A stretch of DNA of 9,450 nt, from NCBI GenBank assembly GCA_000004985.1, contig GG739037.1, one strand, 5' to 3'. This DNA comes from Naegleria gruberi. Lineage: Eukaryota. Shown here in pieces: positions 2 through 9,450 of this stretch. Position 1 is the first letter of the stretch; each line of letters begins with the position of its first letter. The notes beneath the pieces were generated by a model. The model had not been told where the DNA came from. It saw nothing but the letters and a program-made list of their open reading frames with translations, and made no database searches. The position numbers and the translations under genes are program-made.

Positions 2-628
2 CTCGATTCAGAACTTTACATGAAAATTGTAAAACAAGTTTGGAAAATTCATATTTTAATTGGATTACCAGTGAGTATATTGATGGGTGTGTTCTTTCCA
101 CCTCCTTTCAGTCGCAGCTATCAAGATTTACAAAACGAGTCACTTGTCAGTCAATTAGTCATCATTCCAATATTTATTTTATGTGATGACATTTTCACAT
201 TCATAGTTCACTTTCTATTACACAAAATTCCATATGTTTACAAGTATGTTCATTACCTTCATCATGAAATCAAATACTCAGTCTCAATTGGTTCTCAATA
301 TTTTCATCCAATTGAATTTTTAGTGACAGTGCCAGCTGTCATGAGTGGTCCTTTATTGACACATGCTCATTTATTTTGGTCTTTTGTTTGGACAGTGGTT
401 AAGACATTTGAAGCAATTCATTCTCATTCAGGATTTGATTTTATGAAATATTACAGAACTAGTCCTGTCACCAAGTCAATTTTATTGGATGCCAGTGAGC
501 ATACCTATCATCATACACATTATCAAGATTGCTATGGAGCGTGGTATTGTTTAATTGATAAATTGATTGGAACTAACCTTAATTTTGTGAAATTCACCGA
601 AAAGAAACAATATTCGAAAGATAAATAA
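2..628 (+). CDS. Fatty-acid hydroxylase superfamily membrane oxidase (sterol desaturase / C-4 methylsterol oxidase ERG25/SC4MOL-like); 5'-partial, open to the window edge (first in-window ATG at 20)
   Basis: The translation has the spaced histidine boxes of the non-heme di-iron FA_hydroxylase family: HFLLH (aa 64-68), HYLHHE (aa 78-83), HSHSG (aa 134-138) and HTYHHTHY (aa 161-168). The segment HKIPYVYKYVHYLHHEIKYSVSIGSQYFHPIE closely mirrors the ERG25-type motif LYKxIHKxHHE...P...YAHPxE. The N-terminal part is hydrophobic and TM-like. The frame stays open from nt 2, so upstream exon or N-terminus is probably outside the window. The stop is TAA at 626-628. Confidence 0.8.
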   Translation, partial: LDSELYMKIVKQVWKIHILIGLPVSILMGVFFPPPFSRSYQDLQNESLVSQLVIIPIFILCDDIFTFIVHFLLHKIPYVYKYVHYLHHEIKYSVSIGSQYFHPIEFLVTVPAVMSGPLLTHAHLFWSFVWTVVKTFEAIHSHSGFDFMKYYRTSPVTKSILLDASEHTYHHTHYQDCYGAWYCLIDKLIGTNLNFVKFTEKKQYSKDK

Positions 629-762: not shown

Positions 763-881
763 GGCTACGGCCATATCACGATGAATGCACCTCATCCCGT
801 CCGATTTGAGAAGTTAAGCTTCGTCGAGCCACATCAGTACTGAGGTTGGAGACAACTTTGGAACCTGTGGTGCTGTAGTCT
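763..881 (+). rRNA. 5S ribosomal RNA gene (single copy, not in a tandem array within this window)
   Basis: The 5' end ggctacggccatatcacg..., the internal tcatcccgtccgat...aagttaagc block (box A / loop region), the gtactgaggttggagacaa box-C-like segment and the 3' end ggtgctgtagtc all match the eukaryotic 5S consensus. The 5' ggctacggc pairs with the 3' gctgtagtc as a 9-bp helix I, including G-U wobbles. Length is about 119 nt. Confidence 0.9.
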
Positions 882-1377: not shown

Positions 1378-2403
1378 ATGAATTGGTCAATCGATGAATA
1401 CTATCAACAAATAACAACGCTATGGAATCCTTCTTCACCAAAAATCAACAAACATTGCAAGGAAATTACAACAGAATTACAAAATTTGTGTTTTCAAGTT
1501 TTCAAATTTCCTTCAGATAATTATCACAAGTATGGAATTGCTGATTGTTGTGGATGCGCATGTGGACCGTTTCCACAAGTTTCTTACAAGATTATGAGGA
1601 TATTTGCATTGATTACATTGTACTTGTCAATTGTTGATGACGCTTGTGATTGTTTGAAAGATGTAGACGAAACTATTCGAAAGGAGTTGATCACGCACAT
1701 ACAACTGGTTGAGAAATTTGAAGGTCAAGAAGAGTACTTTTCAAGAACCCACAATCCATCGATTCGTTTAGGTCTCTATGTGATGGACGAATTATTCAAC
1801 TCTTGTTCATTCTTCACACAGTTTCAGATTCGAACATTACAATTCGAAATGGTGAAATATTTCAAAACAAGCTTGGAGATGGCAACTTACTGGGCTGATG
1901 GAAGTCAAATTTCAGTTGAAAAATGTGATCAGTGGCGAAGAATTGATTCTCTAGGTTCGATATATATGGAAATGGCTAAATTACAATTCGATTTTGTGAC
2001 CACTTTGGAAATTGAAAAGTTTCAACGAATTTCCAATGAATGTTTCTTCCTAATTAATGATTTGGCATCTTTTCCTAAAGAATTGAGGGATGGAACTTTG
2101 GTCAACCATGCCATTTGCTTACAAAATGAAACTAAACAATCGACAGAACAGAGTTTCTTGATGACTATTGCTAGATTGTATGATTTTCTTATGGAATTGG
2201 AAAGGATGGAAACTTGTCAAGTAAGAAACTCGATTAAGGAAGCAATGAAAGGTTTTGGAGTTTGGTGTTTAAATTCGAAACGTTACAAACATCCTGAGCA
2301 TTTGATTTCCGAACTGAAAGTGGAACAGATCAGTGAGAAATCATCAGCACCTGTGAATAAGATAAATTACTTGCAAATTTTAAAAGCAAATAATAAATTG
2401 TAA
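1378..2403 (+). CDS. Class I terpene synthase / terpene cyclase, microbial (bacterial/fungal/dictyostelid) type, single exon, 341 aa
   Basis: The aspartate-rich motif DDACD sits at aa 87-91 (LSIVDDACDCLKD). The NSE/DTE metal-binding triad NDLASFPKE sits at aa 227-235, about 140 residues after DDxxD. An RY dimer (NSKRYKHPE, aa 302-303) lies about 70 residues after the NSE motif. A WRR pair (aa 186-188) lies about 40 residues before the NSE motif, in the position of the pyrophosphate-sensor arginine. The length fits the alpha-domain-only microbial TPS fold. The frame is clean from an ATG preceded by an in-frame TAG at 1348, to the TAA stop at 2401-2403. Confidence 0.85.
   Translation: MNWSIDEYYQQITTLWNPSSPKINKHCKEITTELQNLCFQVFKFPSDNYHKYGIADCCGCACGPFPQVSYKIMRIFALITLYLSIVDDACDCLKDVDETIRKELITHIQLVEKFEGQEEYFSRTHNPSIRLGLYVMDELFNSCSFFTQFQIRTLQFEMVKYFKTSLEMATYWADGSQISVEKCDQWRRIDSLGSIYMEMAKLQFDFVTTLEIEKFQRISNECFFLINDLASFPKELRDGTLVNHAICLQNETKQSTEQSFLMTIARLYDFLMELERMETCQVRNSIKEAMKGFGVWCLNSKRYKHPEHLISELKVEQISEKSSAPVNKINYLQILKANNKL
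2392..2397 (+). promoter_or_regulatory. AATAAA hexamer overlapping the last codons of the terpene synthase; possible poly(A) signal
   Basis: An aataaa hexamer lies 4 nt upstream of the TAA stop. No other canonical hexamer occurs in the next ~140 nt. Confidence 0.3.
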
Positions 2404-2547: not shown

Positions 2548-2735
2548 ATGACTCGCATTAACAACCAGAAAACAGTTGAAGAAAATACAAGTCAATTAAA
2601 CCACAATCCTTACTTTCAACAAGAAGATTCTAATTACGAAGAGGAAGTTCCAACTCTTATTATTCATTCATCATCTCCTCCTTCTTCAACTCCAACAACT
2701 GTAGCTTTTGATTATTCGAATAGTAGTAAAACAGT
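2548..2735 (+). CDS. 5' fragment of a hypothetical protein (low-complexity S/P/T/Q-rich N-terminus) truncated by the assembly gap
   Basis: An ATG at 2548 opens a frame that runs without stop into the N-run: MTRINNQKTVEENTSQLNHNPYFQQEDSNYEEEVPTLIIHSSSPPSSTPTTVAFDYSNSSKT. The composition resembles other proteins in the window. It cannot be shown to belong to the same gene as the post-gap fragment. Confidence 0.3.
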
Positions 2736-5700
2736 NNNNNNNNNNNNNNNNNNNNNNNNNNNNNNNNNNNNNNNNNNNNNNNNNNNNNNNNNNNNNNNNN
2801 NNNNNNNNNNNNNNNNNNNNNNNNNNNNNNNNNNNNNNNNNNNNNNNNNNNNNNNNNNNNNNNNNNNNNNNNNNNNNNNNNNNNNNNNNNNNNNNNNNNN
2901 NNNNNNNNNNNNNNNNNNNNNNNNNNNNNNNNNNNNNNNNNNNNNNNNNNNNNNNNNNNNNNNNNNNNNNNNNNNNNNNNNNNNNNNNNNNNNNNNNNNN
3001 NNNNNNNNNNNNNNNNNNNNNNNNNNNNNNNNNNNNNNNNNNNNNNNNNNNNNNNNNNNNNNNNNNNNNNNNNNNNNNNNNNNNNNNNNNNNNNNNNNNN
3101 NNNNNNNNNNNNNNNNNNNNNNNNNNNNNNNNNNNNNNNNNNNNNNNNNNNNNNNNNNNNNNNNNNNNNNNNNNNNNNNNNNNNNNNNNNNNNNNNNNNN
3201 NNNNNNNNNNNNNNNNNNNNNNNNNNNNNNNNNNNNNNNNNNNNNNNNNNNNNNNNNNNNNNNNNNNNNNNNNNNNNNNNNNNNNNNNNNNNNNNNNNNN
3301 NNNNNNNNNNNNNNNNNNNNNNNNNNNNNNNNNNNNNNNNNNNNNNNNNNNNNNNNNNNNNNNNNNNNNNNNNNNNNNNNNNNNNNNNNNNNNNNNNNNN
3401 NNNNNNNNNNNNNNNNNNNNNNNNNNNNNNNNNNNNNNNNNNNNNNNNNNNNNNNNNNNNNNNNNNNNNNNNNNNNNNNNNNNNNNNNNNNNNNNNNNNN
3501 NNNNNNNNNNNNNNNNNNNNNNNNNNNNNNNNNNNNNNNNNNNNNNNNNNNNNNNNNNNNNNNNNNNNNNNNNNNNNNNNNNNNNNNNNNNNNNNNNNNN
3601 NNNNNNNNNNNNNNNNNNNNNNNNNNNNNNNNNNNNNNNNNNNNNNNNNNNNNNNNNNNNNNNNNNNNNNNNNNNNNNNNNNNNNNNNNNNNNNNNNNNN
3701 NNNNNNNNNNNNNNNNNNNNNNNNNNNNNNNNNNNNNNNNNNNNNNNNNNNNNNNNNNNNNNNNNNNNNNNNNNNNNNNNNNNNNNNNNNNNNNNNNNNN
3801 NNNNNNNNNNNNNNNNNNNNNNNNNNNNNNNNNNNNNNNNNNNNNNNNNNNNNNNNNNNNNNNNNNNNNNNNNNNNNNNNNNNNNNNNNNNNNNNNNNNN
3901 NNNNNNNNNNNNNNNNNNNNNNNNNNNNNNNNNNNNNNNNNNNNNNNNNNNNNNNNNNNNNNNNNNNNNNNNNNNNNNNNNNNNNNNNNNNNNNNNNNNN
4001 NNNNNNNNNNNNNNNNNNNNNNNNNNNNNNNNNNNNNNNNNNNNNNNNNNNNNNNNNNNNNNNNNNNNNNNNNNNNNNNNNNNNNNNNNNNNNNNNNNNN
4101 NNNNNNNNNNNNNNNNNNNNNNNNNNNNNNNNNNNNNNNNNNNNNNNNNNNNNNNNNNNNNNNNNNNNNNNNNNNNNNNNNNNNNNNNNNNNNNNNNNNN
4201 NNNNNNNNNNNNNNNNNNNNNNNNNNNNNNNNNNNNNNNNNNNNNNNNNNNNNNNNNNNNNNNNNNNNNNNNNNNNNNNNNNNNNNNNNNNNNNNNNNNN
4301 NNNNNNNNNNNNNNNNNNNNNNNNNNNNNNNNNNNNNNNNNNNNNNNNNNNNNNNNNNNNNNNNNNNNNNNNNNNNNNNNNNNNNNNNNNNNNNNNNNNN
4401 NNNNNNNNNNNNNNNNNNNNNNNNNNNNNNNNNNNNNNNNNNNNNNNNNNNNNNNNNNNNNNNNNNNNNNNNNNNNNNNNNNNNNNNNNNNNNNNNNNNN
4501 NNNNNNNNNNNNNNNNNNNNNNNNNNNNNNNNNNNNNNNNNNNNNNNNNNNNNNNNNNNNNNNNNNNNNNNNNNNNNNNNNNNNNNNNNNNNNNNNNNNN
4601 NNNNNNNNNNNNNNNNNNNNNNNNNNNNNNNNNNNNNNNNNNNNNNNNNNNNNNNNNNNNNNNNNNNNNNNNNNNNNNNNNNNNNNNNNNNNNNNNNNNN
4701 NNNNNNNNNNNNNNNNNNNNNNNNNNNNNNNNNNNNNNNNNNNNNNNNNNNNNNNNNNNNNNNNNNNNNNNNNNNNNNNNNNNNNNNNNNNNNNNNNNNN
4801 NNNNNNNNNNNNNNNNNNNNNNNNNNNNNNNNNNNNNNNNNNNNNNNNNNNNNNNNNNNNNNNNNNNNNNNNNNNNNNNNNNNNNNNNNNNNNNNNNNNN
4901 NNNNNNNNNNNNNNNNNNNNNNNNNNNNNNNNNNNNNNNNNNNNNNNNNNNNNNNNNNNNNNNNNNNNNNNNNNNNNNNNNNNNNNNNNNNNNNNNNNNN
5001 NNNNNNNNNNNNNNNNNNNNNNNNNNNNNNNNNNNNNNNNNNNNNNNNNNNNNNNNNNNNNNNNNNNNNNNNNNNNNNNNNNNNNNNNNNNNNNNNNNNN
5101 NNNNNNNNNNNNNNNNNNNNNNNNNNNNNNNNNNNNNNNNNNNNNNNNNNNNNNNNNNNNNNNNNNNNNNNNNNNNNNNNNNNNNNNNNNNNNNNNNNNN
5201 NNNNNNNNNNNNNNNNNNNNNNNNNNNNNNNNNNNNNNNNNNNNNNNNNNNNNNNNNNNNNNNNNNNNNNNNNNNNNNNNNNNNNNNNNNNNNNNNNNNN
5301 NNNNNNNNNNNNNNNNNNNNNNNNNNNNNNNNNNNNNNNNNNNNNNNNNNNNNNNNNNNNNNNNNNNNNNNNNNNNNNNNNNNNNNNNNNNNNNNNNNNN
5401 NNNNNNNNNNNNNNNNNNNNNNNNNNNNNNNNNNNNNNNNNNNNNNNNNNNNNNNNNNNNNNNNNNNNNNNNNNNNNNNNNNNNNNNNNNNNNNNNNNNN
5501 NNNNNNNNNNNNNNNNNNNNNNNNNNNNNNNNNNNNNNNNNNNNNNNNNNNNNNNNNNNNNNNNNNNNNNNNNNNNNNNNNNNNNNNNNNNNNNNNNNNN
5601 NNNNNNNNNNNNNNNNNNNNNNNNNNNNNNNNNNNNNNNNNNNNNNNNNNNNNNNNNNNNNNNNNNNNNNNNNNNNNNNNNNNNNNNNNNNNNNNNNNNN

Positions 5701-6419
5701 NNNNNNNNNNNNNNNNNNNNNNNNNNNNNNNNNNNNNNNNNNNNNNNNNNNNNNNNNNNNNNNNNNNNNNNNNNNNNNNNNNNNNNNNNNNNNNNNNNNN
5801 NNNNNNNNNNNNNNNNNNNNNNNNNNNNNNNNNNNNNNNNNNNNNNNNNNNNNNNNNNNNNNNNNNNNNNNNNNNNNNNNNNNNNNNNNNNNNNNNNNNN
5901 NNNNNNNNNNNNNNNNNNNNNNNNNNNNNNNNNNNNNNNNNNNNNNNNNNNNNNNNNNNNNNNNNNNNNNNNNNNNNNNNNNNNNNNNNNNNNNNNNNNN
6001 NNNNNNNNNNNNNNNNNNNNNNNNNNNNNNNNNNNNNNNNNNNNNNNNNNNNNNNNNNNNNNNNNNNNNNNNNNNNNNNNNNNNNNNNNNNNNNNNNNNN
6101 NNNNNNNNNNNNNNNNNNNNNNNNNNNNNNNNNNNNNNNNNNNNNNNNNNNNNNNNNNNNNNNNNNNNNNNNNNNNNNNNNNNNNNNNNNNNNNNNNNNN
6201 NNNNNNNNNNNNNNNNNNNNNNNNNNNNNNNNNNNNNNNNNNNNNNNNNNNNNNNNNNNNNNNNNNNNNNNNNNNNNNNNNNNNNNNNNNNNNNNNNNNN
6301 NNNNNNNNNNNNNNNNNNNNNNNNNNNNNNNNNNNNNNNNNNNNNNNNNNNNNNNNNNNNNNNNNNNNNNNNNNNNNNNNNNNNNNNNNNNNNNNNNNNN
6401 NNNNNNNNNNNNNNNNNNN
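2736..6419. other. Assembly/scaffold gap: 3,684 consecutive N
   Basis: The sequence shows an uninterrupted n-run from 2736 to 6419. A single n also occurs at 9439. Confidence 0.99.
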
Positions 6420-6420
6420 G

Positions 6421-7056
6421 AGTTCGGAAGGAATATTATTAAAGAATTATGAAATGATATTCTCTCGGGTGTCGAGAACATGGCACGGAGGAGGTGTCTG
6501 TTTTATTAGGAAGAATCAGAAGGGAAATTCTTTTGAAATTTATAATCACAAAGAACATTCAAGCCTTTTCGATGGTGCTAATAATACTCATCAAGAATTT
6601 AACAATCTAGTACTCGGAAGGATACACAAAATATTATATTCACAATTTGTGGATGTTGTTTCACAGGAGAATGGACATGTGGAGTGTCATAGTAAGGGAG
6701 GAAATGCTGTTCAACAAAAATTGGATAATCAATTCAATGAAATTGTAGGAAAATGTTTGGAGCAGGAAGAGAAAACAGGAGTTGCAGAATACAAACTATT
6801 TAATACTTGGTATGGGAATATAGTACTTGTAGGTATCCATCCAGTGGATGGATGTCCAATTATTTCATTCACAACAAGTTGCTTTTCAGATGAGATTGTA
6901 AATAAGGCGCACGTATCCTATCTGAAAACTGTTGGCTCAGGTATTATGGAATGTTTCAATTTGAATATAGCCCAATGTGCAAACTATTTCCTTTCCAAGG
7001 AAGGTGTTAAGGGGTTTTACACACAAGAAGAGTTGGCCAATAGTTTGAATAAATAA
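6421..7056 (+). CDS. 3' fragment (about 212 aa) of a hypothetical protein emerging from the gap; C-terminal globular domain of unrecognised family
   Basis: This 636-nt stop-free frame is the only open frame in the AT-rich stretch and ends at TAA 7054-7056. It is not low-complexity; segments include TWHGGGVCFIRK and GNIVLVGIHPVDGCPIISFTTSCF. AATAAA lies at 7048-7053. The true 5' extent is unknown: the frame is open from the gap, and a possible acceptor ttttattag ends at 6509. Confidence 0.5.
   Translation, partial: SSEGILLKNYEMIFSRVSRTWHGGGVCFIRKNQKGNSFEIYNHKEHSSLFDGANNTHQEFNNLVLGRIHKILYSQFVDVVSQENGHVECHSKGGNAVQQKLDNQFNEIVGKCLEQEEKTGVAEYKLFNTWYGNIVLVGIHPVDGCPIISFTTSCFSDEIVNKAHVSYLKTVGSGIMECFNLNIAQCANYFLSKEGVKGFYTQEELANSLNK
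7048..7053 (+). promoter_or_regulatory. AATAAA poly(A) signal overlapping the stop of the post-gap gene
   Basis: The hexamer aataaa sits immediately before and overlapping the TAA stop at 7054-7056. Confidence 0.4.
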
Positions 7057-7190: not shown

Positions 7191-8093
7191 CTATTTTACA
7201 AAGGCTGATTCTCTAGAAATCTTTTTCAAAGCCTTATCTTTGGATGTTTTATCGAGTTTGGAGAGTAGAACTTCTTGGATTGTTGGCGATAAGTGCTCAT
7301 AAGCATGAGGTTCTTCAGGTGTTGAGACATGTATTAATGGAACAGTATTTCTGTTAATTCCAATACACAAAGGAGGCAAATTGCTGCTAGCCATCATATT
7401 AGAAGATGAGGATGAGAAGAGAGAGAGAAGCAGCGGAGAGCTAGGTGAGCTAGGACTACTTGGACCAACAATAGAATAAGGATTGGCCACCACAGCAGAA
7501 CTACCACCATTATTACTGAATGATGAGCTTCTGGAAATGCTACTTTTTGGAACAGAGCCTAATGTTGATGATCTACCTCTGCTGATTCCATCATTTTTAT
7601 CTGTACGAAGGGCATGCATACTACTTGACTTTGGTAAGGCAACTTCAGCATTGACAGGAATAATTCTATTCTTCTTCAATTCCTTGCACGAGTTTACCAT
7701 TCGTTGCTCCTTGTACAATGATTGGCTTCTCTTTTTGGATGGACTAAAGACTGGAGGTGCTGATTGAGGGCTCCCGAAACTCATAACACTAGTCGTGTCA
7801 CTATTGTTTGAGAGAGAATCAGAGCGTTTTGGAGGTGTTCCCACAACAAAACCAAAGACCAAACTTGATAGCTCTGGACTTTCATAGTCAATCACCAGAG
7901 AGGACCTTCTACTGCTATTGGTCTTCTTTGGAGAGGATGATATTGTTTCATTAATGATTGTTGCTGGCAGAATTTTAGTTGGAGAGGATGGTTGCACTCT
8001 GTATTGTTGTTGTTTTGGCTGTGGTTGAGGAGAGCACAAGGATGGTGGTACCTTCTTTGATAGAGTTATGTTGGTTGGTTGTGAGTTCCCCAT
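7191..8093 (-). CDS. Hypothetical Ser/Pro-rich low-complexity (predicted intrinsically disordered) protein, 300 aa
   Basis: A 903-nt uninterrupted ORF lies on the minus strand in AT-rich DNA. Codon third positions are balanced, unlike random AT-rich sequence. Repeats include SSPSSPSSP, QPQPKQQQ and many S/T-rich runs. The non-repetitive C-terminal tail is EEPHAYEHLSPTIQEVLLSKLDKTSKDKALKKISRESAFVK. The stop is TAG. An upstream exon cannot be excluded. Confidence 0.45.
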   Translation of the reverse strand: MGNSQPTNITLSKKVPPSLCSPQPQPKQQQYRVQPSSPTKILPATIINETISSSPKKTNSSRRSSLVIDYESPELSSLVFGFVVGTPPKRSDSLSNNSDTTSVMSFGSPQSAPPVFSPSKKRSQSLYKEQRMVNSCKELKKNRIIPVNAEVALPKSSSMHALRTDKNDGISRGRSSTLGSVPKSSISRSSSFSNNGGSSAVVANPYSIVGPSSPSSPSSPLLLSLFSSSSSNMMASSNLPPLCIGINRNTVPLIHVSTPEEPHAYEHLSPTIQEVLLSKLDKTSKDKALKKISRESAFVK

Positions 8094-8975: not shown

Positions 8976-9450
8976 TTAAAGTTGTGGTAATGCTGCATGA
9001 GTTTGACCACCAATGGCGACTTCACCCATTCTAATTCTGTGAAATGTTAAACATTCAAATCGTTCAAAAAACAAACTTACTTGAAATATCCCTACATTAT
9101 TGAAATTGATAAGGCTAAAAGTTAATAATGCATTACTTACATTTAATCCCCAAGTTTCTCCCCAACCTATCAAGCAAATTGTAAAATCATTTAGGATGCA
9201 AAAAACTAGTTAATTAACTTACTGTTAACTCCAATCCAATAAGATTCTCCCTTCTCTTTTCCCCAACCAATTAATTGCACAGCATGAATTCCAACAAGTG
9301 TATCCGAATTCCTTGTGTAGATACCACTTTCATAGGTCAAAAAGTCACGAAGGGCAATCATGATGGTGTGGACACTGCCCTCATTCATGATTGATCTCTT
9401 GATTTCCATTTCTCCTTGCAATTGCTTGAAACTTCCTGNGTTTAGTTTTG
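8976..9450 (-). CDS. Papain-family (C1A) cysteine protease, 3' half of gene; 5' end beyond window. Exons (minus strand): 9450-9223, 9166-9141, 9091-9081 (11-nt micro-exon), 9036-8976 including stop
   Basis: Exon 1 translates to ...KLNxGSFKQLQGEMEIKRSIMNEGSVHTIMIALRDFLTYESGIYTRNSDTLVGIHAVQLIGWGKEKGESYWIGVNS. This carries the catalytic His context (HAV..GWG) and the YWIVKNSWG-like block. A GTAAGT donor after GTTAACA, a 56-nt intron and an ...gatAG acceptor restore the Asn-Ser-Trp-Gly active-site Asn motif: NSWGETWGLN. A second GTAAGT donor, a 49-nt intron ending tgtAG and the micro-exon GGATATTTCAA follow. A third GTAAGT donor, a 44-nt intron with a ttaac branch-like motif and a cacAG acceptor lead into the last exon. 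Together they give GYFKIRMGEVAIGGQTHAALPQL*, matching the papain/cathepsin C-terminal GYFRIxRG pattern. All junctions keep the frame. Confidence 0.8.

Follow-up and report, generated by a model that had tools for sequence, protein, structure and literature searches.

A divergent microbial-type class I terpene synthase gene and its locus in the amoeboflagellate Naegleria gruberi

The terpene synthase gene and its locus

We analysed a stretch of 9,450 nucleotides (nt) of Naegleria gruberi DNA (contig GG739037.1 of assembly GCA_000004985.1), referred to below as the window, which carries a gene for a class I terpene synthase (TPS). The locus is eukaryotic and AT-rich (G+C content of about 0.33) and also holds a fatty acid hydroxylase family gene, a 5S rRNA gene, a long run of N and several further genes, complete or partial (Table 1). 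The TPS open reading frame (ORF) is uninterrupted from ATG to TAA, and the chance of 341 codons without a stop is about 4e-12 at the base composition of the window (33% G+C). Its product is letter for letter that of EFC47909.1 / XP_002680653.1, and also that of EFC35757.1 / XP_002668501.1. The annotated product thus equals the ORF, indicating that the reference model of the gene is likewise a single exon. In UniProt the entry is labelled only "predicted protein / uncharacterized protein". As set out below, the ORF proves to be a real gene of this free-living organism, intact and coding for a terpene synthase of the microbial type.

Table 1 Features of the window and of the metagenome contig L001, which covers part of the N run. 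Positions are those of the window unless L001 is named; aa, amino acids; CDS, coding sequence.
Feature	Position	Strand	Evidence and remarks
Fatty acid hydroxylase family gene	20..628	+	PF04116, 64 bits; His boxes; 750 bp upstream of the TPS gene, same strand
5S rRNA gene, full-length	763-881	+	Rfam, 98.5 bits; followed by a T6 run; lies between the hydroxylase and TPS genes
Class I terpene synthase NAEGRDRAFT_54762 / XP_002680653.1 / D2V660, complete single-exon CDS, 341 codons + TAA	1378..2403	+	ORF, exact database match, PF19086, fold matches
DDACD, Asp-rich metal-binding motif (predicted), residues 87-91	1636..1650	+	C-terminal end of modelled helix 70-90; 5/5 residues invariant in 7 family members
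R187-R-I-D190-S191, candidate pyrophosphate-sensor Arg with linker and effector residues	1936..1950	+	Modelled helix break 190-193; Arg187 codon at 1936-1938
NDLASFPKE, second metal-binding motif (NSE/DTE, predicted), residues 227-235	2056..2082	+	Family conservation, profile alignment
RY pair R302-Y303, C-terminal	2281..2286	+	Directly after modelled helix 283-299
394-aa Q/N-rich protein gene, C-terminal hydrophobic segments	L001 1761-2945	+	First 63 codons = window 2548-2735
617-aa Ca2+-dependent phosphatidylinositol-specific phospholipase C-like gene	L001 2953-4806	opposite to the 394-aa gene	PF16670, 112.6 bits
Run of 3684 N	2736-6419		Also a single N at 9439
C-terminal 211 codons of a gene, start lost in the N run	6421-7056	+	Continuous ORF; no Pfam match
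300-aa Ser/Pro-rich gene	7191-8093	-	Continuous ORF; no Pfam match
3' end of a papain-family cysteine protease gene	8976-9450	-	Peptidase_C1, 81 bits after splicing

Family assignment, catalytic motifs and selection

Profile searches assign the product to the microbial-type terpene synthases. Residues 81-259 match PF19086 (Terpene_syn_C_2) with 44.9 bits against a cut-off of 23.7 (E 1.5e-11), and bacterial TPS equivalogs of NCBIfam were matched below threshold only. A word-index homology search with the single protein gave no match beyond the query's own cluster, which is already annotated with terpene synthase Pfam matches in the searched database. Two other classes were considered and rejected. 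A plant-type terpene synthase would combine a PF01397 N-terminal domain with the plant-centred PF03936, and the latter falls just below its threshold (23.4 against 26.3). A trans-isoprenyl diphosphate synthase is ruled out by the single DDxxD motif, by a second motif of the NSE type and by the lack of any polyprenyl synthase family in the Pfam output.

With the single sequence, a search of the PDB returned marginal matches only (pentalenene synthase, E 0.032). A family profile, on the other hand, matched 70 PDB sequences, and all 60 of those listed were terpene synthases or cyclases. The best of them was the fungal presilphiperfolan-8-beta-ol synthase BcBOT2 (E 4.6e-7), in an alignment that runs from DDxxD through RY with every motif in register. 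AlphaFold gave an unusable model from the single sequence (predicted local distance difference test, pLDDT, 36) and was therefore run on a 7-sequence family alignment, which yielded an all-helical model with pLDDT 84 and a predicted template modelling score (pTM) of 0.87. The fold matches of this model identify the all-alpha terpenoid synthase fold of the alpha domain. In the model the NSE motif forms the junction of helices 210-230 and 232-238.

All four motifs expected of such an enzyme are present, with 140 residues from DDxxD to NSE, 40 from Arg187 to Asn227 and 75 from NSE to RY, spacings that are customary for class I terpene synthases of the single-domain microbial kind. The DDACD motif is in register with DDQFD of BcBOT2 in the family-profile alignment, R187 aligns with the Arg of 'DLRR' in the same enzyme, NDLASFPKE aligns with NDVLSYRKD of BcBOT2 and with NDIASLEKE of pentalenene synthase, and RY aligns with GRY of both. 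In bacterial class I terpene cyclases the sensor Arg lies about 46 residues ahead of NSE, as opposed to 40 in the window protein. Thirteen positions, which are the catalytic ones, are invariant across the 7-member family: V86, D87, D88, A89, C90, D91, R187, D190, S191, N227, D228, S231 and K234. Residue 235 is E in the window protein and D in the other members; R302 is retained by all members that extend over this region, with RF in place of RY in the paralogues. The textbook Glu that ends NSE and the textbook Tyr of RY are therefore found, within the family, in the window protein only. By analogy with the effector triad of bacterial selinadiene synthase, which we take to be the model for these positions, R187, D190 and S191 may act as pyrophosphate sensor, linker and effector.

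These results agree with a first-pass annotation of the window, which had described a single-exon ORF of 341 residues in an AT-rich eukaryotic locus, encoding a microbial-type class I terpene cyclase with DDACD, NDLASFPKE, a sensor Arg and an RY pair at canonical spacings, and had proposed the profile search that PF19086 has now answered.

The relatives of the protein were sought with an exhaustive phmmer scan of 1.84 billion representative proteins at a threshold of E <= 1e-3. Five clusters were obtained, all from Naegleria, and a profile search added two N. gruberi paralogues. No protein from outside Naegleria reached the phmmer threshold, and this includes the dictyostelid and Physarum TPSs, to which the relationship of the window protein is thus remote. 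N. gruberi has at least five paralogues including the window gene, in three groups. D2VWT4 is 31% identical to the window protein, whereas D2VAF3, P0012 and P0013 are 24% identical to it and 68-83% identical among themselves. At no more than 31% identity to any other of the representatives, the window protein is the most divergent member of the family. N. fowleri and N. lovaniensis each have one long homologue (865 and 891 aa), and no 1:1 orthologue of the window protein was found in either species. The window protein, its N. gruberi paralogues and both long homologues all score above the PF19086 threshold. The window gene is very probably an old resident member of a Naegleria-specific, fast-evolving TPS family.

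Two of the paralogue sequences show irregularities of their own. The C-terminus of the RefSeq model of D2VWT4 (P0008, 418 aa) departs from the ORFs of metagenome and Logan contigs (P0003, 403 aa; P0009, 401 aa). Because the 'TYLDVI' motif that the family conserves at the C-terminus is kept in these contig ORFs, the reference model probably contains a frameshift or a splicing error at this end. P0013 (322 aa) stops short of the R(F/Y) motif; it could be a pseudogene or a truncated sequence.

A second strain was available for comparison in the metagenome contig L001 (ENA ERZ929261), which is 98.2% identical to the window over positions 787-2735 and encodes the same terpene synthase with one substitution, A55V. 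The two ORFs differ at 4 of 1026 nt, 3 of the changes being synonymous and 1 nonsynonymous (ratio of nonsynonymous to synonymous polymorphism, pN/pS, of about 0.08). The flanking intergenic DNA shows 27 differences over 737 aligned nt (Fisher p = 2e-7 against the ORF), so that the ORF is changing about nine times more slowly than its flanks. This lower divergence, together with the intact motifs, argues for purifying selection on the gene.

Proposed mechanism, alternatives and origin

Class I terpene cyclases bind three Mg2+ ions through DDxxD and NSE, and these ions grip the diphosphate of the substrate; a sensor Arg and the RY pair close the site, and a hydrophobic pocket steers the carbocation to the product. 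We consider it very probable that the gene at 1378-2403 encodes a functional enzyme of this kind, a single-domain (alpha-only) class I terpene synthase belonging to an old resident Naegleria family and not a recent import. DDACD and the triad N227/S231/E235 would hold a trinuclear Mg2+ cluster, to which an all-trans prenyl diphosphate would bind by its diphosphate group, and Arg187 together with the R302-Y303 pair would close the active site over this group. Ionisation would then generate an allylic carbocation; cyclisation or quenching of this cation in the hydrophobic helical barrel would yield a terpene, either a hydrocarbon or an alcohol.

Most enzymes of similar size with a single domain, whether from amoebae, fungi or bacteria, are sesquiterpene synthases. 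This precedent, the size of the enzyme and the supply of farnesyl diphosphate (FPP) by the sterol pathway favour FPP as substrate and a sesquiterpene as product, an assignment to which we would give an even chance. BcBOT2 (PDB 8h6q) shares a structure-based identity of only about 14-15% with the window protein, which precludes any inference of the product from it. T-muurolol synthase (9hqd), 10-epi-cubebol synthase (7zrn), biformene synthase LrdC (6oh6), selinadiene synthase (4okm) and pentalenene synthase (1ps1) share 12-16% identity and come from bacterial hosts, as opposed to the eukaryotic host of the window gene.

Several points weigh against the reading of the gene as a functional cyclase. 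Solved or characterised enzymes share no more than 10-16% identity with the protein, and the chain length of the substrate is a guess, the best fold matches being sesqui-, di- and sesterterpene synthases. The first-pass annotation had likewise held that sesqui- and diterpene products cannot be told apart from the sequence. The motif side chains are predicted to line a cavity from the alignment and the helix positions alone, and the pN/pS estimate derives from just four substitutions. Moreover, the searchable literature holds no expression or biochemical data for any Naegleria TPS.

Among the alternatives, the one that survives best is that the protein has the TPS fold but is not a cyclase, acting instead as a synthase of acyclic products (of the linalool or nerolidol type) or as a prenyltransferase that transfers the prenyl cation to an acceptor, similar to the TPS-fold N-prenyltransferase DabA. 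We regard this as unlikely: true cyclases head both the sequence-profile and the fold matches, and a complete set of motifs with the RY pair is what cyclases typically show. Such an activity would in any case alter the product only and leave the ionisation mechanism unchanged.

It is less probable still that the window gene is silent or codes for a pseudo-enzyme, as a decaying or non-catalytic paralogue within an expanded family. Its divergence from all paralogues, the lack of a 1:1 orthologue in the two sister species and the fact that no expression data were found for the gene would fit such a state. Against this, the ORF is intact in two strains and far better conserved than its flanks, all catalytic motifs are intact, and within the family the supposedly decaying copy alone carries the canonical E of NSE and Y of RY.

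The remaining alternative concerns the origin of the gene. The first-pass annotation had noted that the TPS gene has no introns whereas the protease gene of the same window has three within 250 nt, and had taken this contrast as compatible with, though no proof of, a horizontally acquired or retroposed origin. The contrast itself was confirmed, with protease introns of 56, 49 and 44 nt within about 250 nt. TPS genes are moreover patchy across eukaryotes, and many laterally acquired bacterial genes have been reported in N. gruberi (PMC4053784). However, among the genes visible in this locus, the other complete ones are also continuous ORFs, as is the N. fowleri homologue; intronlessness is therefore the local norm. 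The comparison with the flanking genes that the same annotation had proposed revealed no deviation: the G+C content at third codon positions (GC3) of the TPS gene is 0.326, within the 0.26-0.34 of its neighbours, and its relative synonymous codon usage (RSCU) correlates with that of the pooled neighbours at 0.74, within the neighbours' mutual range of 0.62-0.90. No poly(A) tract or target-site duplication was seen in the sequence around the ORF. There is no recognisable donor, the matches above the phmmer threshold being confined to Naegleria, and the family comprises five N. gruberi paralogues in addition to the homologues in N. fowleri and N. lovaniensis. Neither composition, codon usage, a close donor nor restriction to a lineage tip thus points to a recent transfer from a bacterium or fungus, and this origin, like that of a retroposed copy, is the least probable of the alternatives. 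Since the family is common to three Naegleria species, any transfer would have to be older than their separation; an ancient acquisition by the Naegleria lineage is possible.

Oxygenase domains, published context and neighbouring features

The long homologues of N. fowleri and N. lovaniensis (P0010 and P0011) are single-ORF fusions of a TPS domain with a C-terminal membrane domain that bears three His boxes. The N. fowleri fusion is an uninterrupted 2598-bp ORF in two independent assemblies (L002:8001-10598, VFQX01000006.1; L003:1164-3761), and its His boxes (HTLLH, HKTHH and HAIHH) lie in the C-terminal 320 residues. The C-terminal domain of the N. lovaniensis protein matches Pfam FA_desaturase with 33.5 bits against a cut-off of 29.7; the N. 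fowleri domain by itself does not attain significance. Both proteins carry long Ser/Thr/Pro-rich insertions within the TPS domain, and in both species the fusion is the only TPS detected. We know of no description of a TPS-desaturase fusion.

The fatty acid hydroxylase family gene upstream of the window TPS is 100% identical to a predicted N. gruberi protein on a 695-kb scaffold; the NCBI model has 181 aa and begins at the second Met (nt 83). By analogy with the fusions, Naegleria TPSs might work together with membrane-bound di-iron (His-box) oxygenases, the hydroxylase and the TPS of the window forming a functional pair. If so, the two genes would constitute a minimal terpenoid cluster leading to an oxygenated or desaturated terpenoid. 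This is speculative and, in our view, improbable. The hydroxylase shows no similarity to the fused desaturase-like domain of N. fowleri or N. lovaniensis (BLASTP, E 2.3), so that the idea of a cluster is based on functional analogy only, the two oxygenase domains having no detectable homology. A tblastn search of the window and L001 revealed no desaturase-like sequence in the neighbourhood of the N. gruberi TPS genes, and the N. fowleri fusion locus and the window locus are not syntenic. The more promising lead is the fusion protein of the human pathogen N. fowleri itself, which is restricted to Naegleria and has no detectable close relative elsewhere.

TPS genes of N. gruberi, possibly including the window paralogue, were reportedly described by Chen et al. 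2016 (PNAS 113:12132), in the same organism and enzyme class as studied here. According to PMC6902781, its N. gruberi TPSs come from Chen et al. 2016 (PNAS) and fall into one group with the TPSs of dictyostelids and with Physarum TPS1/4, closer to the fungal TPSs. The dictyostelid and Physarum enzymes (DdTPS1-9, PpolyTPS1/4) are likewise single alpha-domain microbial-type class I TPSs of amoeboid protists, but Naegleria is a heterolobosean and unrelated to Amoebozoa. The window gene is thus no new find: it is annotated in a reference genome and belongs to a gene family that has already been published. Little is new beyond the published presence of TPSs in N. gruberi and the public entry of this gene as an unnamed "predicted protein". 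In the searchable literature we found no paper naming XP_002680653.1 or its locus tag, and for no Naegleria TPS is a product reported, nor a physiological role such as encystment signalling, the amoeba-to-flagellate switch or prey interactions. The strong divergence of the window paralogue is of interest in that its product could have an unusual scaffold.

Among the other features of the window, the 5S rRNA gene differs from L001 at 4 positions (802, 820, 823 and 859) over 95 shared nt and is thus as divergent as the intergenic DNA. This is odd for a functional rRNA gene; errors at the end of the contig could explain it, or the gene may be a dispersed copy in decay. The N run is probably an assembly gap or masking, and the 'ORFs' of 1244 to 1502 aa that appear in the window are artefacts of it. 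L001 covers about 3 kb of this run and supplies the Q/N-rich and phospholipase-like genes of Table 1. No tRNAs were found in the window. The Ser-rich gene at 7191-8093 lifts the local G+C content to about 0.42. The introns of the protease gene are of the GT..AG type and lie at 9167-9222, 9092-9140 and 9037-9080, the last two enclosing a micro-exon of 11 nt (9081-9091) which encodes G-Y-F-(K).
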